From a virus (Duplodnaviria; Heunggongvirae; Uroviricota; Caudoviricetes), in IMG/VR virus record IMGVR_UViG_2663762648_000013: DNA of 61,430 nt, one strand, 5' to 3'. Position 1 is the stretch's first letter, and every line of letters starts with the position of its first letter. Shown piece after piece: positions 13,791-45,552 of the stretch. The notes under the pieces are model-generated. The model did not search any database. It was not told the DNA's origin and saw nothing but the letters and a program-made list of their open reading frames with translations. The translations under genes were made by a program, and so were the position numbers.

Positions 13791-13791
13791 N

Positions 13792-14605: not shown

Positions 14606-17600
14606 TTAACATTCCCCCATCACGTCGCATATTTAACAGATTGCCCTGCACCCGCTGATCAACCATCCCCATAAGTGCTTTTATTGCCTGAGGGCCAATC
14701 TCTCCATTCTGGCCGTCATTTTGAATAGTGATTTGGTATACAGGGGCATAGGTAATATCTCCGCCTCCATTACCACTTTTACTATTAATAGCTCTGACAC
14801 CAAGAGAACCATCGGAAGTTCGTGTTAATGGCATAATGGCTTCCGGTCCAGCCTCACCAAAAACACCAGCCCCTTTTGCAAAAGCAAAAAATTGCGGGGA
14901 ATCATAAATACCGTTCGAATACGTGCTCAATGACGGAGACTCATAAACACCGCCCTTTGCATTCGGAATAAATTTACTAATAGCACTCCCGATAGTTCCT
15001 AAAATCCCCCCAGAAGAACTGTTACTAATGCTGTCGAAAATCCCAGTAATTGAAGCCTTTAATGCTATTCGACTAAGATCCGAAATCACGGAAGTAGCGA
15101 AAGAACGAAAATTTGCCTTGCCTGTCGTGACAAAATCACCCAGCGCATCGGTCATCCCATCAAACATCTGAGTCGTGGTTGATTTTATCTGCTCACTGAT
15201 ATCCTTAGTGTCATCCAGCCAGTTATTGAATCCCTGGGAGGCACCACTAACCCAGTCTCCTGCCTGAATATCGAGCTGCTCGTTTTTCTGTCTGACAATT
15301 TCTTTTTCCCGTTCCAGAGCATCATTCAGAGCCTGCATTTTCTCTTGAAAAACATGATCTGACATTCCACGGGATTTATCTGCATAGTCACGTTCAAGTT
15401 GCAGACGCTGATTGTTATATCCATGTTCAATCCGCAGTAATTCCTGCTGGCGTTGCTGATTTTTATCGCCAACCCCATAACCAGCAATCTGAATATCATA
15501 CCCCTGCTGACGATTATCAATCGAAGCCTGCAATGAATCACGCCATGCTGTTATTTCGGCGGATTCCTTGATTAGCCTGTTATTTTTTTCAATCGCAACA
15601 TTTTTCTCCATCAACGTGGTTATTTCTTCCCGGTGTAAGAGAAGCGATTTCTGATCCTGGGTTAATTTCGATGATGGTCGTGACTCTAGGTCGGCAATCC
15701 GCTGACGCCACTTAACCAGTTCCTGTTCAGAGGAACTTAATTTAACGGTCAACTCAGCTTGTGAACTTAGTAACGCATTCTGTTGATTCAGATGATCAAT
15801 CATTCGTTGGGCTGCATCATCAGAATAACCTTTCGCCTTTGGTTGCTTTGGATCTTTATAACGCTCATTTATTTGAGCGATAAGATTATTATATTCTTCC
15901 TTTGAATACTGATTCTTTAGCTTTTCCAGTTTTGCAAGTTCACTAGCTCTCTGCTGCTCCCGGGTCTGATATTGTTTTGAAAAGGCATCTGCTCTCTGTC
16001 TGAGTTCAATTCCTTCCTGTTGTCGCTTGTTGTAATCGTTTATTGATGAATTTAGTACGTCCTGAGCAATTTTTTCTGCTTGAAGTACGCCCAATTGCTG
16101 CTTTAATCGTGCCAGCCTTTTATTTTGAGCTCCGCCATCTCCAATGCCACCTAACCCGAAAACTCCGGGTCGGGTATTTTTTTCTATTTCATCAATTTGA
16201 CGGAGAACATCTGAGATTTTTTGATCAAGGGAGGCCTCACGGCCAATATCCAGCATGGAATCCCATGCCCATTTTGCGGAGTCTGCGACAGCTTTCCATG
16301 CAGTCTCAAGATAACCAAGATTTTCTTTAATCTGGTTGGTGCGCTGGATCATTGAGGATGAGTATTCTTCTGTCGCAATGCGGGCGGCCTCCTGCTGGTT
16401 CCCTTCATCCTGTAGCGCCTTAATCTGGTTATAAGTCGCAAGTGTCAGAAAATGGTACTGATCATTAAGTTTTGATATGGCACTGACAGGATCCTTTGCA
16501 ATTTCATTGAAGTCATTAACCAGTTGTTCGGTTGATATTCCTGTTACTTCGCTCGTTTTTACTATCGCTGTCGTCACTTGCTCCAGCGAACTGCTCGCTA
16601 CCTTTCCCGAACGCACAAGCTGATTTAATACTGCCGCCGCAGCACCAGTTGTCGAATCAGCCGCATTCCCGGCACGTTGAGCTATATCGCCCAATTGCCC
16701 GCTGGTTGTCCCCAACTGATTTCCGGTAAGAATAAGAGATTTATTAAATTCGTCCTGCTCCTGAGAGCCTTTATAGTAAGCCAGTCCTAAGACCCCAACG
16801 GCTGCTGCGGCCAGGGTAAAAGGATTAATTAATCCCAGCACATAAGAACCTACACCTTTGATCGCCGGGCCAATCCCACCGAACATATCTTTTAGCTGGC
16901 CGCCCTGCTGCATTAACACCATAAATGGCGACTGACCAGTGGACAACCCAACAACAATATCCGTCATTTGTACAGGCAACATGCGCATAGCAAAAGCCGT
17001 TTGTTTTGCCGACATTCCGGTTTTGCTTAATTGTGATTGAGTAACCTCAAGCTCACTCCGCATAGCACGAAGTTTTCCAGAAAGCTCCTCATACATTTCA
17101 GGAGAAAGCATCCCCTTAGCTTTTGCTTCATTGAGCTGTTTCTGTTGTTCTACCAGACGATTAAAAGCAGTTCCGACAGGATCAAGTTGAGCAATCAGAC
17201 GTTGCAAAGCAACAACCTGTTCATCATGCGCTTTTGCTGCTTCTCGCTCTGCCTGAGCCTCTCCGGTAAGCTCTCGCCGTGTTTCCTGTATTTTTCGGCT
17301 ATAATTCTCAAACTGAGAACCATTTATTTTCCCGGATGCAAACGCAGCATTAAGTTCATCATGCTGTTGTTCAAGATTTCTTAGCGCCGCAGCCAGAGGG
17401 TCGATCTTGTCCAGCATTCTTTGAAAGGCCTGAGCCTGCGCTTCCTGCTGGGCGGCAGCAAGTTTTCCGGCCTTCTCGGCTTCTCTCTGCGCTTGCGCAA
17501 CCCCGCTCAATTCCTCTGTGGTTTCATTAAGTTTACGGACAAGAAATTCATATTCTTCTTTATCAATAAGCCCTTTATCGAAAAATTTCTTTAATTCAGA

Positions 17601-17831
17601 ATAGCGTCGACCGACAGTATCAATTGCGGCACCAACTGGATCAATAGCTGCTTTTAATTTTGCGAGCGCGTTCTTCTCATCTTCTGTTGCCTTAGTCACT
17701 TTCCCTGCGCTATTTGCAGCAGTTTCCCCAGCCTGCGTCATTTTGACTAATGAGGAGGTCAGATTGTCAGCATTATTTTTCGCTCCAGTGCTATCAATAA
17801 TTATTGCGAGACGCGAGGTTTGCTCTGCCAT
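14598..17831 (-). CDS. tail tape measure protein
   Basis: 1077-aa coiled-coil-rich ORF; SD GGAG upstream. Confidence 0.9.
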
Positions 17832-23681: not shown

Positions 23682-24797
23682 TTAAATCCCTGCTTTTCTG
23701 AATACCTGTGCATCACGCTCACGGAGCTGCTTCAGCGTCAGCCATTCGCCTTTATCGGTGTAAAATTCATCTGGCGACATACCACCATCCCGAATCAGCT
23801 TTGCTCGGCTTTCCCCCACAATCTGTTTTTGTCTGGTGTAAGGCTGACGCAAAAACCATTCCCTGTAGGTTGTATCTCCGGCCACCACGCCATCCATGCT
23901 GGCCCGCTCAGCCGGGGAAATATCGCGAACATCAATACCCAGTTCCTTCGCTGATTTCAGAATGAACGTTTCCGTTGAGCGGCAGCAGAAATGAATTTTT
24001 CCCGGCCCCTGCAAATAAGGCACGCTGTGACCTACAGGTTTATTATTCAGCGTATATTTGAGGCGATCCCTGATTCGACATTGTGGCGTAGTACGATTAT
24101 CAAGCGTTGATAACCATTGCTTACCCTTAATCAAATCATTATTCGCGCTGGCAAAACTCTCACGGGCAGTAGCAGCAAGATGTCCAACCGCTGTTTTTGC
24201 AATGCTGGCCGCATTAGCCCGGCTCATCTGCAATGCACCATCCTGAAATCCCTTACTGACATGTCCCCGAATTTTTCTTGCGATCTGCTCATTGGTATCC
24301 CCCAGCAAAAAACCCTGACGCACTGTATTTGTTATGCGTCTGAGCCGATCCGCCTCAAGATCTGAGGCCCACTCACTGAGCAGTCGTCCCTGGAATGGTC
24401 GCGCCATTGCAGCGGCATAAAGTGCATCAGGAGAGATACCAACCAGAGGGTGAACATCAGCAACAAAATCAGGTAGCATAGAATCAAACAGACTTAACTG
24501 ATAACCAGCCTCATAAATTGCCAGCTCGTTCAGCTCTCCGGAGAGACTGGTAAACATGCTGTTAATAGCAGTGCGGTTAACCTCTCTGACGCTCGCCAGA
24601 AGTGACTCCAGGCGCTTAACGGTAAAACTACCTGGATCGAGGCTGTCCAGTGCTATCAGCAGGCGAGCAGTAAGTTCCGCATCGCTGTCATTCAGTATTT
24701 TCACCATTCTGGCAGCCACGCCAGTGCTATAGCGGGATATCCAGACTGCATGAGCAATTGATTCATCACGCAGCCGTTCATTCACGGTTTGCATCAT
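23682..24797 (-). CDS. head morphogenesis protein (SPP1 gp7 / Mu F-like)
   Basis: 371-aa ORF downstream of portal. Confidence 0.7.
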   Translation of the reverse strand: MMQTVNERLRDESIAHAVWISRYSTGVAARMVKILNDSDAELTARLLIALDSLDPGSFTVKRLESLLASVREVNRTAINSMFTSLSGELNELAIYEAGYQLSLFDSMLPDFVADVHPLVGISPDALYAAAMARPFQGRLLSEWASDLEADRLRRITNTVRQGFLLGDTNEQIARKIRGHVSKGFQDGALQMSRANAASIAKTAVGHLAATARESFASANNDLIKGKQWLSTLDNRTTPQCRIRDRLKYTLNNKPVGHSVPYLQGPGKIHFCCRSTETFILKSAKELGIDVRDISPAERASMDGVVAGDTTYREWFLRQPYTRQKQIVGESRAKLIRDGGMSPDEFYTDKGEWLTLKQLRERDAQVFRKAGI

Positions 24798-26184
24798 TGA
24801 TTTCCATCAGCATTACACTCTGATTTTTTAATTCATCGATCACTTCCTCTGGACGGGAATCCTGATCGATAAATTTCAACGCCTGCAACACCCGAACCGC
24901 ATCAATCTGACGTATATCACCGCCCTGACGCAATGACTGAACAGCCAGCGCGGAGGATGAGTCAAACACCTGGGCAGATACATCCAGTTCAGTGCGCACA
25001 TCCACATTGCCACCGCAACTCTCTCCGATCCATTCCGCCATTATCTGGAGAATATTATCGAGGGCATCTTCGAGGGAGTTCGCCATTGTATAAAGCGGCG
25101 AGTTTTCCTGCATTCGCTCTTCATTAGTCTGATCAACAGATTTGGTGGATGTATTTTCAGCACGCAGAAGTTTAGCGCCGGCATGACGCATCTGATTTTC
25201 CAGCTTCTCAAGTGATGTTTCGCCAGATTCTATCGCTGCGCCACTATGTTCAACATATTCGAGGCCATTTTTTGTTCTGTCCTCAAAAATCGTAGCGGTG
25301 GATGCACCAACCGTCAGTTCTTCATTCCTGTCCAGCCCGTAGGCCACCAGCAATGGAACGCGGGCAACATGAAGAATATTGTCCTGCTCGCTCTGGCTTT
25401 GCCAGTGCTTGATATTCAGCAAGCCAAGATTAAGCAATGGCGGTGTACCACGCATAAATCCTGTTTTCTTCGTGTACAGTGTTACCAGAGGAATATCATC
25501 ACGGCTGGTATTCCATGACTCATGAAGCGTCCAGACAGATTCGCCATTAGTGCCTTCGCTACGTCGATAAATTTCAACTCGACGGGGCATAATATGGCGG
25601 ATCTGCTCCACCTTCTTCTGCCCGAAATCATCACCATCAATAATGATGACCTCTTTTATACGCAAATCAGTGAGAACAACTTTCCCTTTTTCAACTTTCG
25701 ATTTCCATCCAATAACCTGGCGTGGATTCAGCATCGTAACGTACGGACGACCACCGGTCGCGTTTTCATCGGCTTTTGTCCGAATCTCTTTCATATCCGT
25801 TCGTGGATAGTCCACCAGCGCATGTGCCACACCATACTGAAATGCGAGGCTGAAAAATTGCTGCGCCCACACATCCAGTCGGCTCCCCTCCATGTCGATA
25901 TTTTCTGCATATTCCCTGATTTTTGCCGGCGTTTCCTCACTCAATACTGTCGGCTCTGCAAATATGCGCCCAATATTTTGCTTGATGCTTTCTTCATACA
26001 CAGGAAGTAGCGTAGCCACAGACAGGCGTTTTTTATAAGCGTCTTCATCTTCGTTAGGCCATTTTGGGAGATAATTTTCCCCCTGCCTGCGCATTTCAAG
26101 CGTACCGCCCATCAGTGCGTCGTTAATATCCCACGCCTCCAGCATATCGTTATAGTCGAGGTTGGGTGTTGATATATCAGCCAT
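24778..26184 (-). CDS. portal protein
   Basis: 468-aa ORF immediately downstream of large terminase. Confidence 0.8.
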   Translation of the reverse strand: MADISTPNLDYNDMLEAWDINDALMGGTLEMRRQGENYLPKWPNEDEDAYKKRLSVATLLPVYEESIKQNIGRIFAEPTVLSEETPAKIREYAENIDMEGSRLDVWAQQFFSLAFQYGVAHALVDYPRTDMKEIRTKADENATGGRPYVTMLNPRQVIGWKSKVEKGKVVLTDLRIKEVIIIDGDDFGQKKVEQIRHIMPRRVEIYRRSEGTNGESVWTLHESWNTSRDDIPLVTLYTKKTGFMRGTPPLLNLGLLNIKHWQSQSEQDNILHVARVPLLVAYGLDRNEELTVGASTATIFEDRTKNGLEYVEHSGAAIESGETSLEKLENQMRHAGAKLLRAENTSTKSVDQTNEERMQENSPLYTMANSLEDALDNILQIMAEWIGESCGGNVDVRTELDVSAQVFDSSSALAVQSLRQGGDIRQIDAVRVLQALKFIDQDSRPEEVIDELKNQSVMLMEINDANRE

Positions 26185-26186
26185 AA

Positions 26187-27497
26187 TTAAATCCGAAGTG
26201 ATGTGACTCTTCCGGTCGGTTTGACAATAGGGAATTGCTTAACGATGAAATAACCTCCGGCATCATTCGGGTGATCATTGCCAGATTTTTTATCAGGCTC
26301 CCCCTTCTCATCCCAGACCTGTTGCTCCAGAGATTCGGCATATAACGGGCAACGCTTCACATTAACTTTATAGCGACGCTCACCATTGGCATTGCAGAAC
26401 ATTGCATTCATTGAGTTAACGCGATCTTTTACTGGCGGGTTCGAGCTGTTCACCACAACGTTAAAACCAGCCTGCTTAAGCTGGGCTATATCCGTCGTAC
26501 TTGCGTTACTTGATTTTCTGGAATCCCCGGAAGCATCTGGATAAATATAAATTTCCCTCACTTTCCGGTAATCATTCCCATCATACAGCCAGAAGCGTTC
26601 TTTAATGATGCGGATCATATCCGGCGTATCGTAGGCATTGATGATTTCAGTTACCGCACATGGAAGCCCCAAACGCAGCACATGGACGATTCCCGCCATC
26701 TTTCCAACGTTAAAATCCATCCCAATATAAATCGGCTCCCCTGGCTGCTCCACTTCTTCGCAATTATTCAGTTTCCGGTCAAACTGATGGTAAACAGTAC
26801 CACTTGTCAGGTTAGTAAACTGTCCTCGAAGATAGGCTTTAATCAGCTCTGGAGGGTATGATTCAAGAAGCGAAGGAATGTAATCTGCTGGCAGGTTCTT
26901 TTCATTATCGAAAGTAGATGCCTGCACCAGACCATACAGTGAGGCCAGCTCTGTTTTTTCACGCACGGCTTTAACAAACTGCTCGTAGACAAATTTGAAT
27001 CCTTCCGGCGTGGTTGTAACGTCAATACCGTTGCGAAGTCCATCAATCTTATAACGCATACGTGCAATTATCTTGCGCCACGCCGTTCTGGCTTTTTCCT
27101 TCGGCAAAATGTCCAGTTCATCCACCAACGCATTACCAATTTTGAAACCGACGATCGTTTGTGGCTTCTCCATCGATCTGCAGATAGTGGTTCCCCGATA
27201 CTGGCGTCCGTAATAAAAGTGAACCTCTTTATTTCCCTCATTAATTTTTACGTTCAATCCCCAGTCAGCAGCAACTTCTTCCACTGTAGGGTAAAAAATA
27301 TCGCGAATTTGGGGATACGTTGGCGCAAAATATCCCTGATTTATACCTGGATGCTCCCAAATCCCCTTGCATATGCCGCCACACCCAACCCATGTTTTGC
27401 CCGAGCCAAAACCAGCAATATAGGCTTTAAATTTATGGGGCATTGAAAGAAATCGCGCCTGAGGCACATTAAGCGTCGGAGAGATCATCTTCATCAC
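26187..27497 (-). CDS. terminase large subunit
   Basis: Walker A motif AGFGSGKT near N-terminus; acidic nuclease-like C-terminal half. Confidence 0.9.
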   Translation of the reverse strand: MMKMISPTLNVPQARFLSMPHKFKAYIAGFGSGKTWVGCGGICKGIWEHPGINQGYFAPTYPQIRDIFYPTVEEVAADWGLNVKINEGNKEVHFYYGRQYRGTTICRSMEKPQTIVGFKIGNALVDELDILPKEKARTAWRKIIARMRYKIDGLRNGIDVTTTPEGFKFVYEQFVKAVREKTELASLYGLVQASTFDNEKNLPADYIPSLLESYPPELIKAYLRGQFTNLTSGTVYHQFDRKLNNCEEVEQPGEPIYIGMDFNVGKMAGIVHVLRLGLPCAVTEIINAYDTPDMIRIIKERFWLYDGNDYRKVREIYIYPDASGDSRKSSNASTTDIAQLKQAGFNVVVNSSNPPVKDRVNSMNAMFCNANGERRYKVNVKRCPLYAESLEQQVWDEKGEPDKKSGNDHPNDAGGYFIVKQFPIVKPTGRVTSLRI

Positions 27498-28563
27498 TCC
27501 TTACTCTGGCATCAACCACATTAATATTGATCGCCACAGGCTGGGGATGTTCATTATCTTCCACCGTTTCGATCTCTTTGCGCAGCTTCTGGTTTTCCAT
27601 TCTGCGCCGTTCAATTTCCAGTCCCCGTAGCCGCTTATCTGCACATAAAGCCCCGCCAGCAGAAAACAAACGCAACAATTCACGCCGGGCGGCAGCCTTA
27701 TCCTCCAGCAGGATCTCAACGCCGAATTTTCCGAATTTTGCCCCTGCATATAATTGCCGCGCATCCCCATCAAGCAGAGTGGTATCAGCCATATAAAGCT
27801 GTCCCGTTCCCTCACCGCAGCACTTCGGGCAGTCCGGATTGGGTATGGCGTTATCAACAAAGCCGAGGCCTCCATATTCCGGTTCGGGTTTGCCATCTCT
27901 GGAAGCCTGCGCCGCTGCCTTGTCGAATTCTGCTATATCGCGCCACTGGTAGAGATGATTCTCGCCCCAGCAATAACGGCAGTTAACACGGCGAAATTGT
28001 GCAAGCTGATTGGGGTCGGCCAGGACAATAGCCATCAACTGACTCACTAGTAAATCCAGGTCTGCGGTATAGCGTTTCTGGTACTGATTGCGGAAGTAGC
28101 TGATAGCGCGAAAAACCCTGGCATTTCTAAGCATACGACTGGCGTTGCTGTTAGCTGTCGCACCTTGCCCCTCATAACCGGCTAGTCGGTACGCCTCTGT
28201 CGGCTTTTTACCCTGAGCAACAAGCATCGCAAACTTAGCCTGCTGGTCAGAAATGCCGAATTCATCGGGACAGAACGAAAATTCCTCCGCGTCGCCCTCA
28301 TTCAGGCCCGCATCGAATACTGGCTTTTTTTCCTGAGATTTTTCGTTCCGCTTTTGTGCAGTCTGCGCAGATTTTTTCTGCGCACTTTTTTGCGCAGTTT
28401 TGCACATTTCTGTCTGCGCATTTTTCGGAGTTTTTTTGATGTAACGACGGGCTGTTGCGTAATTCAGTCCCCTTGCTTCACACCATGCCACCGGAGATAT
28501 ACCGGAGCGGGTGTATTCAGCAATATACTCCTGCTGCAACGCCCCCCAGTCCGGTCTGCTCAT
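27469..28563 (-). CDS. terminase small subunit-like DNA-binding protein
   Basis: 364-aa ORF with N-terminal HTH-like segment directly upstream of large terminase. Confidence 0.55.
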   Translation of the reverse strand: MSRPDWGALQQEYIAEYTRSGISPVAWCEARGLNYATARRYIKKTPKNAQTEMCKTAQKSAQKKSAQTAQKRNEKSQEKKPVFDAGLNEGDAEEFSFCPDEFGISDQQAKFAMLVAQGKKPTEAYRLAGYEGQGATANSNASRMLRNARVFRAISYFRNQYQKRYTADLDLLVSQLMAIVLADPNQLAQFRRVNCRYCWGENHLYQWRDIAEFDKAAAQASRDGKPEPEYGGLGFVDNAIPNPDCPKCCGEGTGQLYMADTTLLDGDARQLYAGAKFGKFGVEILLEDKAAARRELLRLFSAGGALCADKRLRGLEIERRRMENQKLRKEIETVEDNEHPQPVAININVVDARVRSDEDDLSDA

Positions 28564-28566: not shown

Positions 28567-28818
28567 TTAGTCCTGATTTTTATCCACCCTGAGTAGTTCG
28601 CGCAGAGCAAAGGCATCCCCTTTTCTGGCAAGCTTAAACAATGCCGCTCGTAACTCGGCTTCACCTTTCGCTCTGCCCTTACGGATGGCCGCATAAAAAT
28701 CTGTCATTGCTTCCCGATTTTCTTTCAGTCGGTTCAGATCAACATCCAGAACGTCAGCGATTTGTTGTGCAGTCATCCGGCACGCTGCCAGAGACTCGAC
28801 TTTCGAATACGGAATCAT
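28567..28818 (-). CDS. small HTH protein (packaging-region, function unknown)
   Basis: 83-aa ORF; true start may be the internal ATG (MTAQQIADVL). Confidence 0.4.
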   Translation of the reverse strand: MIPYSKVESLAACRMTAQQIADVLDVDLNRLKENREAMTDFYAAIRKGRAKGEAELRAALFKLARKGDAFALRELLRVDKNQD

Positions 28819-29704
28819 TTGTCACCCCCATTGATATGCAGGGTGTCTTCTTCCTGTATTTTTCGTGAAGGATTTTTACTGCAGCGTTGTTCCAGGTGAC
28901 CTGATGGTGAATGCGTTTATGACTGGCACCCATAAGTGAGATTTTTACGCACGACGGCGCATACATGACGGAGTAAAAACTTTTAACGTAGGTTCCGGAA
29001 TCCAGATACAGCTCGGTCATTCCGCCGCTGTTTTTCTGCGTCTGTTTCTGCCCTAACTGGACAGCACCGATCGTCATAAACAATTCACCACAGCGACCGA
29101 GATTCGTGTACGTATTCACATCCTCGTTAATGCGCCCCATGAATGAGAACGGTCGATCAACCGAACAGATAAAGCTGTTCATTGCCTTGCGTTTCACCCA
29201 CGAAGCATGGCCGCCATTGTCACCAAGAAAATCCCCGCCCTGCGACATAGCGATGGAAAGAGCAGGTATTGATTCGTAGTACGCAAGCATTTCAGAAAGG
29301 ATCTCATCCAGTTTCCTTATCGGGAAATAGGCCTGGTCATAGTTGCGATCCACCCGAAACTGGAACTCGTGATAATCATCATCGAGCTGAATGAAGTATT
29401 TACACCCGACCAGTTTTGCCTGGTCGAAACAGGCATTACGGGCGTAAAAAATTGAGCGGCGGTCACTAAAATTATCGGCTTCGTCAAAACGACTAGCAAT
29501 ATCGGCTTTGGAAAATACCAGCACCTGTTCACCAAATTCAGCCATGTACTGATGCCGTGTCTTATCTTCATCATCAACAACGATAAAAATTTTCCCGGTA
29601 TAGCCAGCACGACGCAACGTCCGGTAAGTCAGAACTTTGTCCGGTCGCCCGTGAGTCAGAATAAAGGCGCAAAAATCATCACGCATATTCCTCCTCCCCG
29701 CCAT
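28754..29704 (-). CDS. GT-A-like (glycosyltransferase-fold) protein, function unknown
   Basis: 316-aa ORF; AFILTHGRPD then IFIVVDDED then YFIQLDDDY pattern resembles a GT-A nucleotide-sugar transferase fold with a DxD motif. Confidence 0.45.
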   Translation of the reverse strand: MAGRRNMRDDFCAFILTHGRPDKVLTYRTLRRAGYTGKIFIVVDDEDKTRHQYMAEFGEQVLVFSKADIASRFDEADNFSDRRSIFYARNACFDQAKLVGCKYFIQLDDDYHEFQFRVDRNYDQAYFPIRKLDEILSEMLAYYESIPALSIAMSQGGDFLGDNGGHASWVKRKAMNSFICSVDRPFSFMGRINEDVNTYTNLGRCGELFMTIGAVQLGQKQTQKNSGGMTELYLDSGTYVKSFYSVMYAPSCVKISLMGASHKRIHHQVTWNNAAVKILHEKYRKKTPCISMGVTNDSVFESRVSGSVPDDCTTNR

Positions 29705-30467
29705 GCATGATCTCCACCATGCGCTGCGTCATTCGGACAAATCCATTTTCAATAGCCTGCTGATAATCAATGATCACCAGCGCCGACTCCTCGAAAAGGC
29801 ACTGAATTTCAGCGGGGGCATGAGCGTAATAGTCCGCAATTCTGCTGAAATTAAACACCGTGTGACGTTCTGCTGCACACAGGAGGAATTTCTCAATATC
29901 AGGATCAAGGGACGCCGAACGTATCCGGCTGATCAGCTCCTGAGTTTTCGTATCGTCGTACAGTTCACTGATATCCGGTTTACCGCCTGACGGCTCATAA
30001 ACAGGCGTATCAATTTTCGTCGTATACGGCTCCTCCTCATTTCCTGTACCGGGCAAAACATCCGTCAACAGTTCATCAATTTCTGCCGGGATGAAGCCTG
30101 TCAGGGAGACATCAAAATCAGCATTGATTAGGTCCGACAGCTCCATCCGCAACAGATCTTCATCCCAGCCAGCATTCATCGGCAGGCGATTATCTGCCAG
30201 GCGGTACGCCTTTTTCTGCTCATCCGTCAGGCCAGACAGAACAATGACCGGAACAGAATCCATTTTGAGCATTTCAGCCGCCATAACACGACCGTGACCC
30301 GCAATAATTTCGCCCTTTTCGTCAATCAGCACCGGATTAGTCCAGCCGAATTGCTTAATACTTTCTACCAGTTGTGCCACCTGCTCAGTACTGTGCGTCC
30401 TGGCGTTGTGCGCATACGGTGACAATTCTTGTAATGGGCGATAGACTATCTTTAATTTCTCGCTCAT
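29679..30467 (-). CDS. ParB-like nuclease domain protein
   Basis: 262-aa ORF; N-terminal ParB/Srx-like motifs (NARTHS..., IIAGHGRV). Confidence 0.65.
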   Translation of the reverse strand: MSEKLKIVYRPLQELSPYAHNARTHSTEQVAQLVESIKQFGWTNPVLIDEKGEIIAGHGRVMAAEMLKMDSVPVIVLSGLTDEQKKAYRLADNRLPMNAGWDEDLLRMELSDLINADFDVSLTGFIPAEIDELLTDVLPGTGNEEEPYTTKIDTPVYEPSGGKPDISELYDDTKTQELISRIRSASLDPDIEKFLLCAAERHTVFNFSRIADYYAHAPAEIQCLFEESALVIIDYQQAIENGFVRMTQRMVEIMHGGEEEYA

Positions 30468-30604
30468 ACAGCCTTGCTTTATGAATAAAACGCACCCCAG
30501 CAGCCAGTGCTACTGGGGGCGGAGGTGTTGCTGGTAAAGTTAGGTATTGGATCAATGAGTGAGTCAACATAATATTAAACTCACAATTATAAATCAGCCA
30601 TATA

Positions 30605-32080
30605 TTAGGAGCGCCAAAAAAAACCTGAAAACAATATAATAACAGGATAAATTTCAAGGCGACCAAGAATCATAGCTATGCACATTAAATATTTTGCAAT
30701 GTCATTAAGCACTCCGAATGACGATGCAGTAGCCCCAAAACCTAATCCCATATTATTAATACATGCAGCCACTGTTGCAAATGATGTAAGAAAATCATAT
30801 CCCATACCATTTAACACCAGTATAAAAAACACCGTGAAGAGAGTATAAAGAAAAAAGAAACTCCATACAGACCTCATTACACGATCTGTAACTATCTTCC
30901 CTCCTACATTTACACTCAACAACGCTCTGGGATGAGAAAGCTGATTTATCTCGTGTTTGCTTTGTTTGAAAAGTATAAGAAATCGAAGTGACTTAATTCC
31001 ACCACAGGTTGAACCTATACATCCCCCAAAGAAACTTGACAACAGCAAAAACACTATCGTGTGCGTGGGCCAGTTTGCATAATCCTGCGTAGCTAAACCA
31101 TTATCAGTGAGCATGGAGCTGGCAAGAAAAAACGAATGAATAAAACTTCCATGCAAGTCATACATACCTATATGCCAGACCTGGAAAGAGGTAACAATGA
31201 TCACCCCTAAGGCTATTAACAGAAAGAAACGAAGTTCAATATCTCTGATTAAAGGTTTTATCGTTTTTCTGCTAATAACAATATACCAAAGAGTGAAGTT
31301 GAAAGCCGATAGCAGGGAAAAAGAACCAGCCACCAGCTCAACCAAATAGTTATTAAAATATCCGATACTCTCGCTATGAGTTGAGAAACCACCAAGCGAA
31401 ACTGTGGAAATCCCGTGACAAATAGCATCAAACAAAGGCATTCCTGCAAGTCTATAACAGACAATACAAGCAATACCTAATAAAGAATAAGTTATCCACA
31501 GTGTCCGTGACGTATCGGCCAGGCGGGGAGTGAGTTTGTCATCCTTAAATGGCCCCGGCATTTCTGACTGATAAAGCTTTGCACCACCAATACCCAATAA
31601 TGGCAATACTGCAACCGCCAGAACAATAACTCCTAAACCACCTATAAAATTTAACTGTGACCGATAGTACAAATATGCCCGAGGTAATGAACTAACATCA
31701 TCAATTACAGTTGCTCCTGTTGTTGTTATTCCAGAAACCCCTTCAAACAGAGCATCAATGAACGTTAAATTAAGTTCTGAGTCAATCCATAAAGGGAATG
31801 CACTAATAACAGAAAACAAAATCCAAAACATTACAATTATAATAAACCCATCACGGGTACGTAATTGAATGCCAGATTTCTTAGTTGTATACCACGCTCC
31901 GCCACCAATGCAAAAAAATATAACGAAAGTTATAAAGAAAACGAACAGGCTTTTTTCTTTATAAAACAATGCTACAACCATTGGTGGCAACATTGAAAGA
32001 CTATAGAGCCAAACCAGGAACCCACACATATGAGTAACAACTCTTACATGAGATGTATTCATATCTAAATATTCTTTCAA
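30605..32080 (-). CDS. trkG: Trk-system potassium uptake membrane protein (TrkG-like), prophage cargo
   Basis: 491-aa polytopic membrane ORF; AAGGTGG SD before ATG 32080; alternative start 32062 (MNTSHVRVV) gives 485 aa. Confidence 0.85.
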   Translation of the reverse strand: MKEYLDMNTSHVRVVTHMCGFLVWLYSLSMLPPMVVALFYKEKSLFVFFITFVIFFCIGGGAWYTTKKSGIQLRTRDGFIIIVMFWILFSVISAFPLWIDSELNLTFIDALFEGVSGITTTGATVIDDVSSLPRAYLYYRSQLNFIGGLGVIVLAVAVLPLLGIGGAKLYQSEMPGPFKDDKLTPRLADTSRTLWITYSLLGIACIVCYRLAGMPLFDAICHGISTVSLGGFSTHSESIGYFNNYLVELVAGSFSLLSAFNFTLWYIVISRKTIKPLIRDIELRFFLLIALGVIIVTSFQVWHIGMYDLHGSFIHSFFLASSMLTDNGLATQDYANWPTHTIVFLLLSSFFGGCIGSTCGGIKSLRFLILFKQSKHEINQLSHPRALLSVNVGGKIVTDRVMRSVWSFFFLYTLFTVFFILVLNGMGYDFLTSFATVAACINNMGLGFGATASSFGVLNDIAKYLMCIAMILGRLEIYPVIILFSGFFWRS

Positions 32081-33624: not shown

Positions 33625-34020
33625 CTAACCTCGCATGTCAAAGCCAGATTTCTGAAAATCTCTGTAGACTTCCGGATTGTTGAAGGCCGGAAATTTGGCT
33701 TTATGAGCTGCGGACTTTATCGCTTCGCAATAGGCTTTATCACCGTTACTGGTAGATATTTTTAACGCCGTGCCATCCTGAGAGAATTCCATATGCAACC
33801 TGCATTTTTTCCCTTTCCAGTTATGCGGCTCATCAAGTTTGGCATTAATTGCAGCTCTGATTCCCCGCGCTTGCGCCCCCCATTCATCCTGATCATCCCA
33901 GCGTCCTGAACTGCAACTACCTGTAGCAGTAGTTTTGTGGCAATCTGAAGGGTGTAAAGGTGTGCATCCCGCAACAAAACCGACCCAAAAAGTCAACATA
34001 ACGATTTTCTTTAATCCCAC
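33625..34020 (-). CDS. lipoprotein with TolA C-terminal (domain III)-like fold
   Basis: Signal peptide plus lipobox VAGC; C-terminal half aligns by eye with the second copy and with E. coli TolA domain III. Confidence 0.6.
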   Translation of the reverse strand: MGLKKIVMLTFWVGFVAGCTPLHPSDCHKTTATGSCSSGRWDDQDEWGAQARGIRAAINAKLDEPHNWKGKKCRLHMEFSQDGTALKISTSNGDKAYCEAIKSAAHKAKFPAFNNPEVYRDFQKSGFDMRG

Positions 34021-34170: not shown

Positions 34171-34599
34171 TCAGGGTTTAAAATCCAGCACCCCATTTTG
34201 AAATACTTTATATACTTCCGGCGAAGGGGGGGCAGGTATATCAGCATTCTTTATCGCATTCATCGCTTCACGACATAAATCGAGGTCTCCACTTTCTCTT
34301 TTAACCTCCAGTAGAAGGCCATTCGGGGCCATATGCATTCTCAGTGTACACTCTTTTCCTGAATACTTACTCGCATCCCCGAACTGTTTTTCGATGGCGC
34401 TCTTGATTTGATGGGCATACAGACGGATATCCTCACTAACATCAGAAGTACGTTCAGATGAACTCACATACTGTGTCTCTATTGCTTTATCGGAGTAATA
34501 TGATGTACGGTCATGATAATTTGTCGATACAGCATCAGTGCACCCGATAATAATCCCACTAATAATCAACGTAAGAATTGATGCGCTACGAAAACCCAT
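34171..34599 (-). CDS. lipoprotein with TolA C-terminal (domain III)-like domain
   Basis: Lipobox IIGC; YAHQIKSAIEKQF...KECTLRMHMAPNGLLLEV...IPAPPSPEVYKVFQNGVLDFKP closely parallels the TolA C-terminus as I recall it; GAGGAA SD. Confidence 0.7.
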   Translation of the reverse strand: MGFRSASILTLIISGIIIGCTDAVSTNYHDRTSYYSDKAIETQYVSSSERTSDVSEDIRLYAHQIKSAIEKQFGDASKYSGKECTLRMHMAPNGLLLEVKRESGDLDLCREAMNAIKNADIPAPPSPEVYKVFQNGVLDFKP

Positions 34600-39861: not shown

Positions 39862-40884
39862 TTAAAATTCATGAATGAACGGTTTGTCATCTGGTTGCAA
39901 AATGGTGGTTTTATTCGTTGCTACATTTAAACTGTTGTAGAGCATAATTGCCAGGTTCGATGCATTTTCAATCAGCGTTTCAAGATCCTGGTCTGTAATC
40001 ACTACGAGGTTCCCTTCTTTATCCTTTCCACCACGATGCACTAAGTGATTTCGATTGAGGGTTGCCAATTCAATAGCTTCTATCGGACAGTCTTTTTGTA
40101 CTTTTATATCGAATGTAGCTTCATAGCGGTCGATTACCTTTTTAGTGCTATGCCAGCTTGCACTGATCAAGTGTTCCTTGATTGACCTGATTAGCTCTCC
40201 CCTAATTTTCTCGATGGGTTCACCCTTGAAAGGCAACGCAGCAATATCTTTGCTTACTTTAAATTCAGTCTTACCTTTTTCTATACAATTGGCTATGTAG
40301 ACATCATCTTTCTCTATAGAATTAATGAATAGCTCAACATAAAGCGTTTCCAAAGCTGTAATAACATTCGTGTAGAGCAAACTAAGCAAGTGGTTTTTTT
40401 GCTGTTGTTCAGTTTTATCTTTTGCAAGTTTTTTTATTTTATCGATATTATCAATGAATTTTAAATACGGATTACCGGAAGACGTTACAGCGTCGTAGAT
40501 ATCATCATCGTACCAATCATCTATATTATTTGAGTTTCCAGACCAGTCAAAACATTGTGTTTGTAATTCATCTACTAATTCCTCAATATACTCAGATTTA
40601 ACATATTGACCGAAGATGGATTGTAGTTCTTCGCTCGCATCATACGGCCCGCCATATATGTAAGCATAGCCACCTTCTCTACTTTCATACGGACAAGCAT
40701 TTGCCGGATCTTCAAAGTTTTCAAAGAACCAGTTTTTCATTACTTCGAGTTGATCTTTTTTGCTTATGTATTTTAAAGATTTTAGTGGAACTTTCTTTCC
40801 ATTAACCTCGAAAACAATTTTCACGATGTAACGCTCCCTTGTATCAATTGCGCAACTATTATACCACAGCGAAATACAGGGCAT
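39862..40884 (-). CDS. hypothetical protein A (340 aa) with HEPN-type RNxxxH motif; first gene of candidate accessory cassette
   Basis: ORF 39862-40953; start set to ATG 40884 preceded by AAGGAGG; motif LNRNHLVHRGG at 40027-40053; low GC. Confidence 0.65.
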   Translation of the reverse strand: MPCISLWYNSCAIDTRERYIVKIVFEVNGKKVPLKSLKYISKKDQLEVMKNWFFENFEDPANACPYESREGGYAYIYGGPYDASEELQSIFGQYVKSEYIEELVDELQTQCFDWSGNSNNIDDWYDDDIYDAVTSSGNPYLKFIDNIDKIKKLAKDKTEQQQKNHLLSLLYTNVITALETLYVELFINSIEKDDVYIANCIEKGKTEFKVSKDIAALPFKGEPIEKIRGELIRSIKEHLISASWHSTKKVIDRYEATFDIKVQKDCPIEAIELATLNRNHLVHRGGKDKEGNLVVITDQDLETLIENASNLAIMLYNSLNVATNKTTILQPDDKPFIHEF

Positions 40885-41022
40885 AACCTGCCTCCTTAAA
40901 CTAACATACCATGAGCCAGCAATGTCCGCTATTGGCACAAAGCGGACAACCACGCTAGCTCTCCCCTGTGCCAGAAAAATGTCAATTTACATATGAACTA
41001 ATGCTCTTTGATCTAGTAACGT

Positions 41023-41439
41023 CTATAAATACCGAAGATTTCCTTGATAAAATGCCAGTACACGTTTCATAACTTCACTCTTCCGGCACTCGCGACAGAT
41101 TATGTTCTGACGCCTGTCATAGCGGCGTATTTCTCCGTCTGGTAATGACCAGATAAGGTCAGGATCAACCACAACCGTTTTTTTCACCTTTGCCCTGGAT
41201 AGTTTTTTGCGGGCGTTTTTCCAATCCTTACGAGCCTGTTCAGACGGGAATAACCCGTAGCCAGAGTTGTATACATCCCCACTGGCAACCAGCTCTCTGG
41301 CGAGAACGCTTATTAAATATCTTGTCGCCCCGGTTTTAGCTTCCAGTTGTCGTAACGTCTCGCGCCCACTCTGGCGTACGAGTTCAACAACCTGCCCCTT
41401 AATTTTTTCCCGCTCTTCCTGTGTAAATACTTTTGCCAT
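41023..41439 (-). CDS. winged-helix DNA-binding protein (138 aa), prophage early region
   Basis: N-terminal HTH-like segment; C-terminal CRECRK; three diverged paralogues in window. Confidence 0.55.
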   Translation of the reverse strand: MAKVFTQEEREKIKGQVVELVRQSGRETLRQLEAKTGATRYLISVLARELVASGDVYNSGYGLFPSEQARKDWKNARKKLSRAKVKKTVVVDPDLIWSLPDGEIRRYDRRQNIICRECRKSEVMKRVLAFYQGNLRYL

Positions 41440-41454
41440 AAGCGCCCCCGGCAA

Positions 41455-42180
41455 TCACTTTTCCGACACAATACGACCGGAGGAATCGACAATCTGTCGA
41501 ACAATATCCCGGTGCTTGTTCAGCTCCCGCAACGCGGCGCAGACACGCTCCCACTTCTGGACATGACTTTTCGCCCGACGCAGTTCGCGGTTTGCCATAT
41601 GCAGCGATGGTAAAACCAGGTCATCCGCTTGCGTTTCGGTGAACGATGGCAACGACTGCACAATGTCCGCCACAGTTTCTGTTTTAATTTCTTCCTGTGT
41701 TGCAGCTTCCTGTACCGGTAACGCAACACCTGCTGGCTGAGGAAAGACTTTACCATCCGTTTCCGCTATGGATGCGGCTTTCGGCTCTGCCGGTAAATCA
41801 GCGCCCGGTATGCAGTACCGAAATTTACCGCCCTGATTCACGCGAATCAGACGCCCTTTGCTGATTGCCATGGCCAGCGATGAATTCGCCCGGCGGGAGG
41901 TAATCCCGAACATCAGTGCCAGCTCATCCGCCGTTTGTGGGCCATGTTGTTCAATCGCCTCAGTCAGCATTTGCGCTGTCACTTTCGGTACCGGTGACAC
42001 TGGTTCACTTTCACCAGCCTGAATCAGCCACCACATCGAACCCTTGTTATCCGCTTCACCACGGCGCTTCAGTTTCCACAGTTCGTTGACCGCATCTTCA
42101 CGGCTGATTCCAAGGCGGGACGCCACCACATGTGAAGAGGCTCTTTTCAGTGCTTTCAGTGCGTCAAATACAGTTTCCAT
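41455..42180 (-). CDS. prophage early-region protein (241 aa, winged-helix repeats)
   Basis: ORF 41455-42198 trimmed to ATG 42180 preceded by GGAGGA; paralogue at 43577-44338. Confidence 0.5.
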
Positions 42181-42198
42181 TAAAACATCCTCCAACAA

Positions 42199-42391
42199 AA
42201 ATTACTTCACAACTCCCGGAAAGCTGACATTTGAACGCCAGCTATCCCAGTTAAACGTCACCCACCGACAACCGTTCATGGTCATGCGGTCCATAATCCT
42301 CTCACCAAGAAGCGTGCTCATTGCGGCATGATTCAGGTTTGTTAACATCCCGACACTGCACAGTGATGCTGTCCGGCGATCAATTATCTGG
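42199..42391 (-). CDS. DnaC-like helicase loader, C-terminal fragment (diverged allele; truncated at N 42392)
   Basis: Minus-strand translation parallels the C-terminus of the ydaV-like genes. Confidence 0.4.
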
Positions 42392-42392
42392 N

Positions 42393-43006
42393 TTACCTTT
42401 TTCTATACAATTGGCTATGTAGACATCATCTTTCTCTATAGAATTAATGAATAGCTCAACATAAAGCGTTTCCAAAGCTGTAATAACATTCGTGTAGAGC
42501 AAACTAAGCAAGTGGTTTTTTTGCTGTTGTTCAGTTTTATCTTTTGCAAGTTTTTTTATTTTATCGATATTATCAATGAATTTTAAATACGGATTACCGG
42601 AAGACGTTACAGCGTCGTAGATATCATCATCGTACCAATCATCTATATTATTTGAGTTTCCAGACCAGTCAAAACATTGTGTTTGTAATTCATCTACTAA
42701 TTCCTCAATATACTCAGATTTAACATATTGACCGAAGATGGATTGTAGTTCTTCGCTCGCATCATACGGCCCGCCATATATGTAAGCATAGCCACCTTCT
42801 CTACTTTCATACGGACAAGCATTTGCCGGATCTTCAAAGTTTTCAAAGAACCAGTTTTTCATTACTTCGAGTTGATCTTTTTTGCTTATGTATTTTAAAG
42901 ATTTTAGTGGAACTTTCTTTCCATTAACCTCGAAAACAATTTTCACGATGTAACGCTCCCTTGTATCAATTGCGCAACTATTATACCACAGCGAAATACA
43001 GGGCAT
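42393..43006 (-). CDS. second copy of cassette protein A, N-terminal part only (truncated at N 42392)
   Basis: Identical in translation to 40271-40884 including the upstream AAGGAGG. Confidence 0.5.
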
Positions 43007-43144
43007 AACCTGCCTCCTTAAACTAACATACCATGAGCCAGCAATGTCCGCTATTGGCACAAAGCGGACAACCACGCTAGCTCTCCCCTGTGCCAGAAAA
43101 ATGTCAATTTACATATGAACTAATGCTCTTTGATCTAGTAACGT

Positions 43145-43561
43145 CTATAAATACCGAAGATTTCCTTGATAAAATGCCAGTACACGTTTCATAACTTCAC
43201 TCTTCCGGCACTCGCGACAGATTATGTTCTGACGCCTGTCATAGCGGCGTATTTCTCCGTCTGGTAATGACCAGATAAGGTCAGGATCAACCACAACCGT
43301 TTTTTTCACCTTTGCCCTGGATAGTTTTTTGCGGGCGTTTTTCCAATCCTTACGAGCCTGTTCAGACGGGAATAACCCATAGCCAGAGTTGTATACATCG
43401 CCACTGGCAACCAACTCTCTGGCAAGAATGCTCATCAGATATCTTGTCGCACCTGTCTTGGCCTCCAGTTGCCTTAACGTCTCGCGCCCACTCTGGCGTA
43501 CCAACTCAACAACCTGCTCCTTAATTTTTTCACGCTCTTCCTGTGTAAAAACTTTTGCCAT
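43145..43561 (-). CDS. winged-helix DNA-binding protein (paralogue of 41023-41439)
   Basis: 143-aa ORF, near-identical protein. Confidence 0.55.
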   Translation of the reverse strand: MAKVFTQEEREKIKEQVVELVRQSGRETLRQLEAKTGATRYLMSILARELVASGDVYNSGYGLFPSEQARKDWKNARKKLSRAKVKKTVVVDPDLIWSLPDGEIRRYDRRQNIICRECRKSEVMKRVLAFYQGNLRYL

Positions 43562-43576
43562 AAGCGCCTCCGGCAA

Positions 43577-44338
43577 TCACTTTTCCGACACAATACGACT
43601 GGAGGAATCGACAATCTGTCGGACAATATCCCGGTGCTTGTTCAGCTCCCGCAGCGCGGCGCAGACTCGCTCCCACTTCTGGACATGATTTTTCGCCCGA
43701 CGCAGTTCGCGGTTTGCCATATGCAGCGATGGTAAAACTAGGTCATCCGCTTGCGTTTCGGTGAACGATGGCAACGACTGCACAATGTCCGCCACAGTTT
43801 CTGTTTTAATATCTTCCTGTGTTGCCGCTTCCTGTACTGGTAACGCAACACCGGCTGGCTGAGGAAAGGCTTTACCATCAGTTTCCGCTACCGATGCAGC
43901 TTTCGGCTCTGCTGGTAAATTATCGCCCGGCATGCAGTAACGAAATTTACTGTTCTGGTTTACGCGAATCAGGCGTCCTTTGCTGATTGCCATTGCCAGC
44001 GTTGAAGCAACTTTGCGGGATGTTGTACCGAACAGCGTAGCCAGTTCATCCGCCGTTTGTGGTCCGCGTTGTTCAATCGTCGCGGTTAAATCGCACTCTG
44101 AGATTTTCACTACAGTTGCCGTGGTGGTTTCTTCCGGCAGTTCTGCCTGCATTGGCTGTTCCTGCTGAACGTTGTTATCAGCCACACGCCAGGTGTACGC
44201 GCTTTTATCAACGAAACCAGCTTTTTTCAGTTCCCATAGTTCGTTCAGCACTTCTTCACGACTGATATCAAGTCGCGCAGCAAGTTCTATGGATGTGGCT
44301 TTTCCCATTGCTTTCAGTGCGTCAAAAACAGTCTCCAT
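43577..44338 (-). CDS. prophage early-region protein (253 aa, paralogue of 41455-42180)
   Basis: ORF 43577-44389 trimmed to ATG 44338 preceded by GGGAGGA. Confidence 0.5.
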
Positions 44339-44360
44339 AAAAATTTCCTCCCGGTAAAAA

Positions 44361-45107
44361 TTACTTCTCAATTCCTGGCTGGACGACATTCGGACGCCAG
44401 CTCTCCCAGTTAAAATTCACCCATCGCCCGCCGTTCATGGTCATGCGATCCATAATCCGCTCGCCGAGCAATGTTTTCATGGCCTCATAGTTCAGGTTTG
44501 TCAGCATCCCCACGCTGCGCATCGACGCTGTCCGGCGATCAACAATCTGGTGCAGCACCACCTGCTCGTTTTTCGTCTCGCGCTGAATGCCAATTTCATC
44601 AAGAACCAGCAGATCCACTTCGCATAGTTCCCGCAAAAATTTTTCGCCTGACTGCCCATCGTCATAGCTGGCGTGCAGGGCACTCATAACATCAGCCACG
44701 GTAACCACAATCACTGTCTGACCGTCTTTCAGCAGGCGATTCCCGATAGCTGCCGCTAAGTGGTTCTTCCCGGTACCAGGTTTTCCGCTGAACGCAAAAT
44801 TTGTACACCCGGTCATCAGTTCATCAGCGATGGATTTCGCCTGACTCAACGCGTATCGCTGCGCTTCGTTCTGCACCTGGTAATTCGAAAACGAGCATTT
44901 GCGGTGCAATGGCTGGATGCCAGAGCGATTCAGAATTTTTTCCACCCGCAACTGGCGATTCAGGCGGTTGATCTCCTCGCTACGTTTCTGGCCTTCAGCA
45001 AGTTGCCACTCGCGCCACTCCGCTACCGTTCTGAATGGGGCGGTTACATGTGGCGGGGTCAGTCGGCGGATGCGTTCCAGAACGCCGCCTGTCGCAATAT
45101 TTTTCAT
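44361..45107 (-). CDS. DnaC-like replication protein / helicase loader (YdaV-like)
   Basis: Walker [14 protein letters not shown] and Walker B LLVLDEIG. Confidence 0.85.
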
Positions 45108-45113
45108 GGTCCG

Positions 45114-45383: not shown

Positions 45384-45552
45384 CCAATCGGGCAGCTCAA
45401 TAGCCTCCGGCTCGAATTTTTTAGACGCTCGTTTTTGGCGAGGGGGAGATCAGTATTTAGATCTTCCTCTTCCTCTTCCTCTGGTAACGCTTTTTGATCC
45501 GTTTGTGTAACGCTGGCAGCGTTACCTTTTCGTTTCAGTTCGCGTATTTTTG

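Follow-up and report, generated by a model that had tools for sequence, protein, structure and literature searches.

A ParB-Fold Protein and a TAGT-Family Glycosyltransferase Encoded beside the Packaging Genes of a Rac-Type Prophage: A Pan-Phylum Phage Cassette with a Possible Role in DNA Modification

Introduction

The 61,430-nucleotide stretch of viral DNA IMGVR_UViG_2663762648_000013 (IMG/VR; Caudoviricetes), referred to below as the window, carries two overlapping minus-strand genes located between trkG and the genes for DNA packaging. The first, ORF1 (29679..30467, 262 aa), is a ynaK-like gene whose product begins with a ParB/Srx domain, and the second, ORF2 (28754..29704 as a frame of 316 aa), encodes a glycosyltransferase of the TAGT family. 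The coordinates and location of both genes are as given in the original prediction, made by a model from the sequence, which proposed either a DNA hypermodification or anti-restriction module or a nuclease accessory to packaging, and knew of no characterised function for the pair. The searchable literature likewise yielded no experimental study of ynaK/TAGT. Three points go beyond that prediction: ORF2 belongs to a named family (TAGT, 'GREB1-related'), ORF1 contains a second, novel domain, and the two genes form a pan-phylum cassette. The families and folds of both proteins, their obligate genomic pairing, the mobility of the pair between phage types, its position, and the lack of a detectable hydroxymethyl-pyrimidine source are established here.

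Domain Composition of the YnaK-Like Protein

The possibility that the two reading frames are chance ORFs was rejected, as each product has more than 7,700 database homologues and the identical DNA is present in many E. coli genomes. The product of ORF1, named ynaK by the Prokaryotic Genome Annotation Pipeline (PGAP), matches PHROG 620 over its whole length (E 1.7e-90) and Pfam ParB_N (PF02195) with 29.3 bits (E 8.7e-07, cutoff 26.3). Its AlphaFold2 (AF2) model, with a mean predicted local distance difference test (pLDDT) score of 66, is composed of a ParB/Srx nucleotide-binding domain (aa 1-95, 30183..30467, minus strand), a short helical segment extending to residue ~135, a disordered region (aa 136-169, pLDDT <50), and a helical C-terminal part (aa 170-255). 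The N-terminal domain has sequence matches in the PDB to Spo0J (E 1.8e-05), ParB and Noc, and its Foldseek neighbours are Noc, ParB with CDP or CTPgS, PadC, KorB and sulfiredoxin, which bears out the ParB/Srx-like character ascribed to ORF1. According to the same Foldseek search, the ParB/Srx fold includes small-molecule kinases (SerK, sulfiredoxin).

Residues N21-x-R23, S36, G57-H58-G59-R60 and D92-N93 of YnaK are invariant or nearly so. The boxes considered for nucleotide binding are Box I (N/Q-x-R), Box II (GxxR) and Box III (N). Compared with the canonical GERR box, the glutamate is replaced by His58 and the first arginine by Gly59, while N21, R23, S36, G57, R60 and N93 are retained. The best profile matches of the domain are the N-termini of phage and type II DNA methyltransferases (PHROG 498, E 6e-51; PADLOC MTase_II, E 1.5e-38). 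No helix-turn-helix (HTH) DNA-binding domain was found in the Pfam scan or in the AF2 model, which has only the short helical segment and the linker following the ParB domain. YnaK has the N-terminal CTPase-fold domain in common with partition ParB, Spo0J, Noc and KorB, but it differs from partition ParBs in lacking the HTH, a ParA partner and the GERR glutamate, in having another C-terminal domain, and in being encoded in a late phage operon. A partition ParB was rejected on the grounds of the missing HTH or parS-binding domain, the lack of ParA in the neighbourhoods, a score of 38 bits with the partition-ParB model TIGR00180 (cutoff 58), and the integrated state of the prophage.

The C-terminal domain (aa ~144-255, 29703..30038, minus strand) combines a linear motif with a helical bundle. 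The motif, P-Y-T-x-K-I-x-x-P-x-Y-E-P-S (aa 147-160, 29988..30029, minus strand), lies in the region predicted to be disordered. Its residues Y148, T149, K151, P155, Y157 and P159 are invariant, and homologues consisting of this domain alone retain Y148, Y157 and E158, which makes the motif a candidate docking peptide or acceptor site. The helices that follow it are conserved as well (AAxRHTVFNF-KIADYY, LFEESALVIID). No Pfam model covers the C-domain, and sequence searches of the PDB gave no relative of it; weak matches to armadillo-repeat proteins and to gp54, obtained when relatives of solved structure were sought for the C-domain and TAGT, were judged to be due to chance. Used alone as a query against 1.84 billion representative proteins, the C-domain retrieved 1,195 clusters (50% identity) at E <=1e-3. 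Among the best 150 of these clusters, it is either the C-terminal part of proteins of ~250-300 aa or a standalone domain in proteins of 128-160 aa; the longer proteins add ParB_N only, and no fusion of the C-domain to TAGT or to another enzyme was detected in these 150. The YnaK C-domain is a novel conserved domain, previously unmodelled.

In E. coli strain EC2, the DNA of which is 100% identical, RefSeq/PGAP lists ynaK as an incomplete pseudogene (L001 21711-21968, corresponding to 30210-30467 of the window) despite the intact ORF of 262 codons. The ynaK of E. coli K-12 is presumably a 5' stump only, in line with the 'missing C-terminus' note of PGAP. With a truncated K-12 reference, full-length ynaK genes are under-annotated.

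The TAGT Glycosyltransferase

The product of ORF2 matches the TAGT family ('TET-associated glycosyltransferase', PF20691) over aa 14-228 with 118.8 bits (E 4.1e-34, cutoff 27.5). It also matches PHROG 842 (E 8e-104), which bears the name beta-glucosyl-HMC-alpha-glucosyltransferase, and it is called 'GREB1-related protein' by PGAP. No relative of solved structure was found for it by sequence. The AF2 model, based on 29 homologues, is confident for aa 10-155, with pLDDT mostly >85 in the N-terminal half, and poor further on. Foldseek comparison of the model with the PDB returned GT-A enzymes only (SpsA, glycogenin, LARGE1, ColGalT1, hyaluronan synthase), and the top matches among the BFVD viral models were TAGT-domain proteins. 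The Rossmann-like GT-A catalytic core (aa 10-160 in the 316-aa numbering, 29225..29677, minus strand) contains the triplet D108-D109-D110 (29375..29383, minus strand), a DxD motif for metal and nucleotide-sugar binding, invariant across the 29 homologues (alignment A1). The GT-A fold with a DDD motif, previously proposed for the N-terminal half of ORF2, was in this way confirmed. The C-terminal half (28835..29224, minus strand) is basic (pI 9.6) and strongly conserved, with NEDV, GGMT and R-x-H-H motifs. Modelled poorly on its own, it is a candidate surface for interactions with DNA and/or a partner protein.

The overlap between the two genes had been given as 26 nt. It exists, but has this length only when the first ATG of ORF2 is used. 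Homologues begin with MRDDFC, a GGAGG-rich Shine-Dalgarno sequence (GGGGAGGAGG, 29690..29699, minus strand) is located 5' of the Met7 codon (ATG 29686) inside the 3' end of ynaK, and PGAP assigns the same start. As read from the sequence, the TAGT gene probably extends over 28754..29686 (minus strand) and encodes 310 aa, and its overlap with the ynaK stop is then 8 nt (ATGCGTGA). Whichever start is used, ynaK and the TAGT gene look translationally coupled.

Pairing and Distribution of the Cassette

Loci with ORF2 relatives were gathered from 80 IMG/VR viral contigs, 45 genomes (one per species) and several cultured phages, ~130 altogether, and the genes upstream were classified with local hidden Markov models (HMMs). 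The 45-species set includes Enterobacterales, Bacteroidota, Clostridia, Veillonella, Desulfovibrionaceae, Acidobacteriota, Prosthecochloris, Saccharibacteria, Hyphomonadaceae and others. In nearly every locus with upstream DNA present, the gene directly upstream of TAGT and on the same strand carries the YnaK C-domain, usually overlapping the TAGT start by a few bases, and this pairing persists down to 27% TAGT identity. The narrow ParB HMM missed the N-terminal domain in several Bacteroidota, in which ParB-type motifs ('NPR ... GGNMRY') are visible by eye. The pair ynaK and TAGT is a pan-phylum cassette, not a peculiarity of Rac. No homologue of the cassette or of TAGT was found among 72,556 plasmids, an absence that we count in favour of a DNA glycosyltransferase.

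Among cultured viruses, the pair is encoded by Lactobacillus gasseri phage phi jlb1 (gp24/gp25), the actinophage NTR1 of Nocardia (Orf1/Orf2), Porphyromonas phages with a TAGT only 27% identical, and the haloarchaeal virus HHTV-2 (gp21/gp22). Additionally, L. delbrueckii phages c5, LL-Ku, phiLdb, Ld17 and PMBT4 have the pair, with some of the copies decayed. In LL-Ku, Ld17, Ld25A and phiLdb, the TAGT gene is split or truncated, or only a fragment of it is left, joined to the ParB ORF, and the cassette appears to be decaying in these phages. In the Vibrio jumbo phage pv27, TAGT is preceded by a gene for a standalone C-domain of 139 aa (E 4e-44) that lacks ParB; both are surrounded by genes for a primase, an exonuclease and a helicase.

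The three protein modules differ in their conservation. In 40 diverse loci, TAGT had the highest median pairwise identity (54%), followed by the C-domain (44%) and the ParB domain (27%), and the divergence of TAGT correlated with that of the C-domain (Spearman 0.59) much more closely than with that of the ParB domain (0.23). This indicates that the ParB module is exchanged while the C-domain co-evolves with the enzyme.

A Hyphomonadaceae metagenome-assembled genome (L119 2614-6161) has two TAGT genes downstream of the ParB/C-domain gene, the nearer of them with a fused class-I SAM methyltransferase-like domain (Methyltransf_23/11). This arrangement hints at a methylated disaccharide as the product. 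A second TAGT and a fused methyltransferase domain are as expected for the elaboration of a glycan, and we count them in favour of a DNA glycosyltransferase.

Association with Packaging Genes

The proposed location of the pair between trkG and the packaging genes holds. The trkG gene (30605-32080) is a low-GC moron (GC 0.39-0.43) inserted between the lysis cassette and the ynaK/TAGT cassette, and a terminator-like hairpin (30495-30518, minus strand) lies 3' of it, just upstream of ynaK. As the cassette is preceded by the lysis genes and by a moron ending in this hairpin, it would belong to the phage late transcript. On the other side, a small ORF of 83 aa (69 aa in PGAP; 28567..28818), which matches PHROG 309 and resembles part of a small terminase, is followed by TerS (Terminase_2, 27469-28563), TerL (Terminase_6N/6C, 26187-27497) and the portal gene (24778-26184), all on the minus strand. 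Enterobacterial loci keep the small ORF 3' of the cassette.

Of 46 diverse loci, at least 32 encode, within four genes downstream, a large terminase belonging to one of the three recognised clusters, and several others have small-terminase-like genes followed by unclassified large ORFs. No recurrent third gene was found beside the cassette in these 46 loci. The terminases located 3' of the cassette represent at least four families, i.e., Terminase_6 (this window), T7-like, lambda GpA and TerL_ATPase/HK97-like, and include both cos and pac types. The small subunits vary (Terminase_2, P22 gp3, Terminase_4), as do the portals and capsids. In two HK97-like loci, a genuine HNH gene lies upstream of the cassette and separate from it. 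An HK97-like contig bearing the cassette (L134 17837-20316; also L135) has four consecutive GT2-family genes shortly 3' of the capsid gene.

Among the PADLOC defence-system models, none matches TAGT, and YnaK matches only the ParB-like N-terminus of the MTase_II model. A known anti-phage defence system was rejected, since no PADLOC system was matched.

Comparison with Known Systems

The sole biochemically defined phage TAGT, the beta-glucosyl-HMC-alpha-glucosyltransferase of T2/T6, adds a second glucose to alpha-glucosyl-hydroxymethylcytosine (hmC) in DNA (PMC13216743, PMC13390438). It resembles ORF2 in its Pfam family, GT-A fold, DxD motif and phage origin. T-even homologues are too distant to be found with ORF2 by tblastn, the only match being Aeromonas phage 65 (23%), whose T4-like TAGT, unlike ORF2, has no YnaK-type partner. 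In phage clusters with TET/5mYOX enzymes, glycosyltransferases act on 5-hydroxymethylcytosine (5hmC), and ParB-like genes and terminases are frequent neighbours (PMC8256090; bioRxiv 10.1101/2023.12.21.572611; PMC13229309).

One such ParB-like protein, ParB176, is an obligate and cognate-specific activator of the phage thymine dioxygenase 5mYOX176 on double-stranded DNA (O'Toole et al., PNAS 2026, PMC13229309). It consists of a nucleotide-binding domain, helices of ~20 aa, a disordered linker of ~50 aa and a C-terminal domain, has no DNA-binding domain, and requires both the nucleotide-binding and the C-terminal domains (PMC13229309). By this published description, the layout of YnaK is alike: its nucleotide-binding domain is followed by a short helical segment, a disordered linker of ~35 aa and the C-domain, and an HTH is lacking; N14/R16/S29/R56 of ParB176 correspond to N21/R23/S36/R60 of YnaK (PMC13229309). 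ParB176 is encoded beside a DNA-modifying enzyme, often near glycosyltransferases and a terminase, and YnaK adjoins TAGT in ~130 loci. The partners differ, being a dioxygenase for ParB176 and a glycosyltransferase for YnaK. By analogy, TAGT may depend on YnaK.

The ParB domain most similar to that of YnaK is found in phage ParB-domain DNA methyltransferases (PHROG 498; PADLOC MTase_II; ParB-N6_N4_Mtase fusions, PMC12704722). In these proteins, the catalytic domain is fused to ParB, whereas TAGT is a separate, translationally coupled enzyme that would be recruited via the C-domain. The genes of such methyltransferases typically reside in late or packaging regions of prophages. A 2025 survey of the ParB-CTPase fold describes methyltransferase and DUF fusions in prophages, and its accessible part mentions neither glycosyltransferases nor terminases (PMC12704722). 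GREB1, reflected in the PGAP name of ORF2, shares the glycosyltransferase domain family; unlike ORF2, it is a multidomain cytoplasmic protein of 1,949 aa with a protein substrate (PMC7968844). The HNH endonuclease of the HK97 gp74 type is encoded, like ynaK, just upstream of terS/terL. YnaK has no HNH fold, and both genes coexist in some loci. The cassette is best described as a putative ParB-assisted, TAGT-type nucleic-acid-modification module without a TET step.

Proposed Function and Its Alternatives

The reading we favour is that ynaK and TAGT form a two-component, ParB-assisted DNA glycosyltransferase expressed from the late operon and acting around packaging. In this proposal, TAGT would be the catalyst, a metal-dependent GT-A enzyme using a nucleotide-sugar donor, and the YnaK-like protein would serve as its dedicated adaptor or activator. 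The C-domain of YnaK, perhaps together with the invariant tyrosine-rich peptide, would bind the transferase, and the ParB-fold nucleotide-binding domain would gate the complex or hold it on double-stranded DNA. Newly replicated phage DNA would thus be glycosylated before or during packaging by the terminase, with protection from host nucleases at the next infection as the likely benefit. The physical complex, DNA as the target, the timing and the benefit are the parts that we infer.

DNA is favoured as the target for three reasons: viruses whose virion and packaging proteins differ this much share no other substrate, DNA methyltransferases use a ParB module of this type, and the characterised phage TAGT member acts on DNA. 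Expression together with the packaging genes suggests that the modification takes place on replicated DNA, ahead of packaging or in the course of it. The DNA hypermodification or anti-restriction module suggested in the original prediction is thus the best-supported reading, considering the T2/T6 DNA glucosyltransferase family, the methyltransferase-type ParB domain and the ParB176 precedent (PMC13229309). Its wording, 'acting on packaged DNA', should be amended to replicated DNA before or during packaging.

Several observations weigh against this proposal. TAGTs owe their name to a linkage with TET/JBP dioxygenases, the enzymes that generate the sugar-accepting hydroxyl. No TET/JBP, thymidylate-synthase-like hydroxymethylase or other hydroxyl source is present in the PGAP annotation of the identical prophage, and Pfam scans of ten early-region ORFs of the window revealed no TET/JBP. 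Similarly, no hydroxymethyl source was detected within 10 kb of TAGT in five Pfam-annotated loci or in the complete 38-kb genome of phi jlb1, the early ORFs of which are all small. A TET/JBP hidden in the 1.4-kb unannotated gap of that genome was rejected, as the gap contains no ORF >73 aa. C5-methyltransferases were found in only 5 of the 46 diverse loci. With no source of hmC, glucosyl-hmC or TET here, the acceptor probably differs from that of T2/T6. Moreover, we know of no glycosyltransferase acting on canonical DNA bases, and to our knowledge the DNA of lambdoid phages has never been reported to be glycosylated. Proteins of the YnaK family are very acidic (pI ~4.5) and lack a DNA-binding domain, the C-terminal halves of both AF2 models are of low confidence, and several lytic Lactobacillus phages contain decayed copies, indicating that the cassette is dispensable there. 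Finally, GREB1, a eukaryotic TAGT relative, modifies a protein (PMC7968844). The missing acceptor-generating enzyme, the acidity of YnaK and the GREB1 precedent are the reasons why we give the proposal about an even chance of being correct.

The phi jlb1 gap (L133 11350-12746) is located just upstream of the ParB gene, and some of its frame translations look, by eye, like tRNA genes.

A more far-reaching version, which we regard as speculative and rather improbable, is that a ParB-clamped TAGT of temperate tailed phages adds sugar directly to canonical, non-hydroxymethylated DNA, or else to a DNA end or the backbone. If true, DNA modification of a new chemical class would be carried by Rac-type prophages of about one-sixth or more of the sequenced E. 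coli, by phages of many bacterial phyla, and by a virus of at least one haloarchaeon. Such adducts would be overlooked, as short-read sequencing does not reveal them. More generally, if DNA is the target, a sugar modification requiring no TET or hydroxymethylase step would be present in common lambdoid E. coli prophages as well as in temperate phages from other phyla, among them gut Bacteroidota and Firmicutes. This would influence escape from restriction and CRISPR, targeting by type IV restriction, host range in phage therapy, and sequencing bias. The activation of DNA-modifying enzymes by the ParB fold would then extend from dioxygenases to glycosyltransferases, with the YnaK C-domain as the coupling element.

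The main rival is protein glycosylation, in which TAGT would act on the Tyr/Thr peptide of YnaK, in a glycogenin-like manner, or on another phage or host protein, and the ParB fold would be a nucleotide-gated regulator only. The invariant Y148/T149/Y157/S160 in the disordered linker travel with the cassette, and a self-contained acceptor of this kind would explain the pan-phylum conservation. Glycogenin and collagen or protein glycosyltransferases are among the GT-A neighbours in structure, the head module of one phage with the cassette contains four additional GT2 genes, and the TAGT-domain protein GREB1 O-GlcNAcylates ER-alpha (PMC7968844). We nevertheless consider protein glycosylation unlikely. 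The characterised phage TAGT member acts on DNA, the ParB domain is of the type fused to DNA methyltransferases, and the closest functional precedent activates a DNA enzyme (PMC13229309). Furthermore, the virion proteins are wholly different among cassette-bearing phages, and the jumbo-phage cassette is placed among replication genes. Should the target be a protein, a phage glycosylation system that is widespread and linked to packaging would still call for an explanation.

Two further alternatives seem to us distinctly less probable than protein glycosylation. According to one, the enzyme acts only on pre-modified DNA, with 5hmC, 5-hydroxymethyluracil (5hmU) or glucosyl-hmC coming from elsewhere; the substrate would be the DNA of a co-infecting or superinfecting phage, or the cassette of Rac-type prophages would be a low-function remnant of a TET-containing pathway. 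The family is indeed named for its association with TET. The T2/T6 enzyme puts a second sugar on an existing one (PMC13216743), and the genes most often found near phage 5mYOX are those for ParB, glycosyltransferases and terminases (PMC13229309). However, in ~130 loci both genes appear intact and are strongly conserved (median identity of 54% between phyla), TET is not encoded in cis, the late-operon placement would leave the genes silent in a lysogen, and the complete small genome of phi jlb1 lacks a partner pathway.

The other alternative, which we likewise hold to be improbable, assumes that the target is RNA, tRNA or a small molecule (e.g., a nucleotide) and that the association with terminases reflects merely a convenient insertion site in the late operon. 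It would agree with the lack of an evident DNA-binding domain and with the breadth of the ParB/Srx fold, which includes SerK and sulfiredoxin and binds various NTPs (PMC12704722). Nonetheless, no RNA-binding domains were found, the slot directly before terS/terL recurs across unrelated phage lineages, and the family precedent is DNA.

That ORF1 is a ParB-like nuclease assisting terminase cutting in the manner of HNH proteins, the other half of the original prediction, or a partition ParB is very improbable despite the historical 'ParB-like nuclease' label, names like 'chromosome partitioning protein' and the terminase adjacency: Pfam revealed neither an HNH domain nor any other nuclease motif, it is the C-domain and not ParB that constantly accompanies the transferase, the ParB part shows the lowest conservation and can be dispensed with in pv27, the neighbouring terminases, cos and pac, fall into at least four unrelated families, and HNH genes coexist with the cassette in HK97-like loci.

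The Prophage and Other Features of the Window

The 2.2 kb around the cassette matches the chromosomes of several E. coli strains with 100% identity, and the host element is an intact, integrated Rac-type lambdoid prophage. Its gene content comprises recE/recT, kilR, sieB, ydaS/T/U/V-like genes, the essD-rrrD-rzpD lysis cassette, trkG and ynaK, followed by head and tail genes. The cassette region, used as a query, matches 1,619 of 5,426 complete E. coli genomes, 867 of them with at least 80% query coverage, and ten deposited records of Escherichia and Salmonella phages contain the region with 98.6-98.7% identity.

A gene for a QueH-type epoxyqueuosine reductase (45753-46436, minus strand; PF02677, E 2e-65), an unusual phage cargo, is encoded in the early/replication region. 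It is possibly linked to queuosine and tRNA or to 7-deazaguanine chemistry, and it is absent from the PGAP annotation of the EC2 prophage stretch retrieved. The early region (40271-51515) contains two to four direct copies, mostly 93-100% identical, encoding ydaV-like IstB/DnaC ATPases, DUF1627, DUF977 and HEPN_RES_NTD1-like proteins, which indicates a tandem segmental duplication or stacked replication modules.

Among the tail genes, 8355-14308 is a nest of inverted repeats (209-696 nt, 90-100% complementary) with a GC content of 0.58-0.60, and two ORFs of tape-measure size face each other (4817-8062, plus strand; 14598-17831, minus strand). The repeats and the facing ORFs suggest a head-to-head joining or rearrangement of two tail modules. 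Between the late-regulator region and the lysis genes lie two small genes (33625-34020 and 34171-34599, minus strand), and the N-termini of their products look, by eye, like signal peptides or those of lipoproteins. Their EC2 counterparts are annotated by PGAP as TolA C-terminal-domain proteins, one of them a partial pseudogene, and the products may be superinfection-exclusion or Tol-mimic factors.

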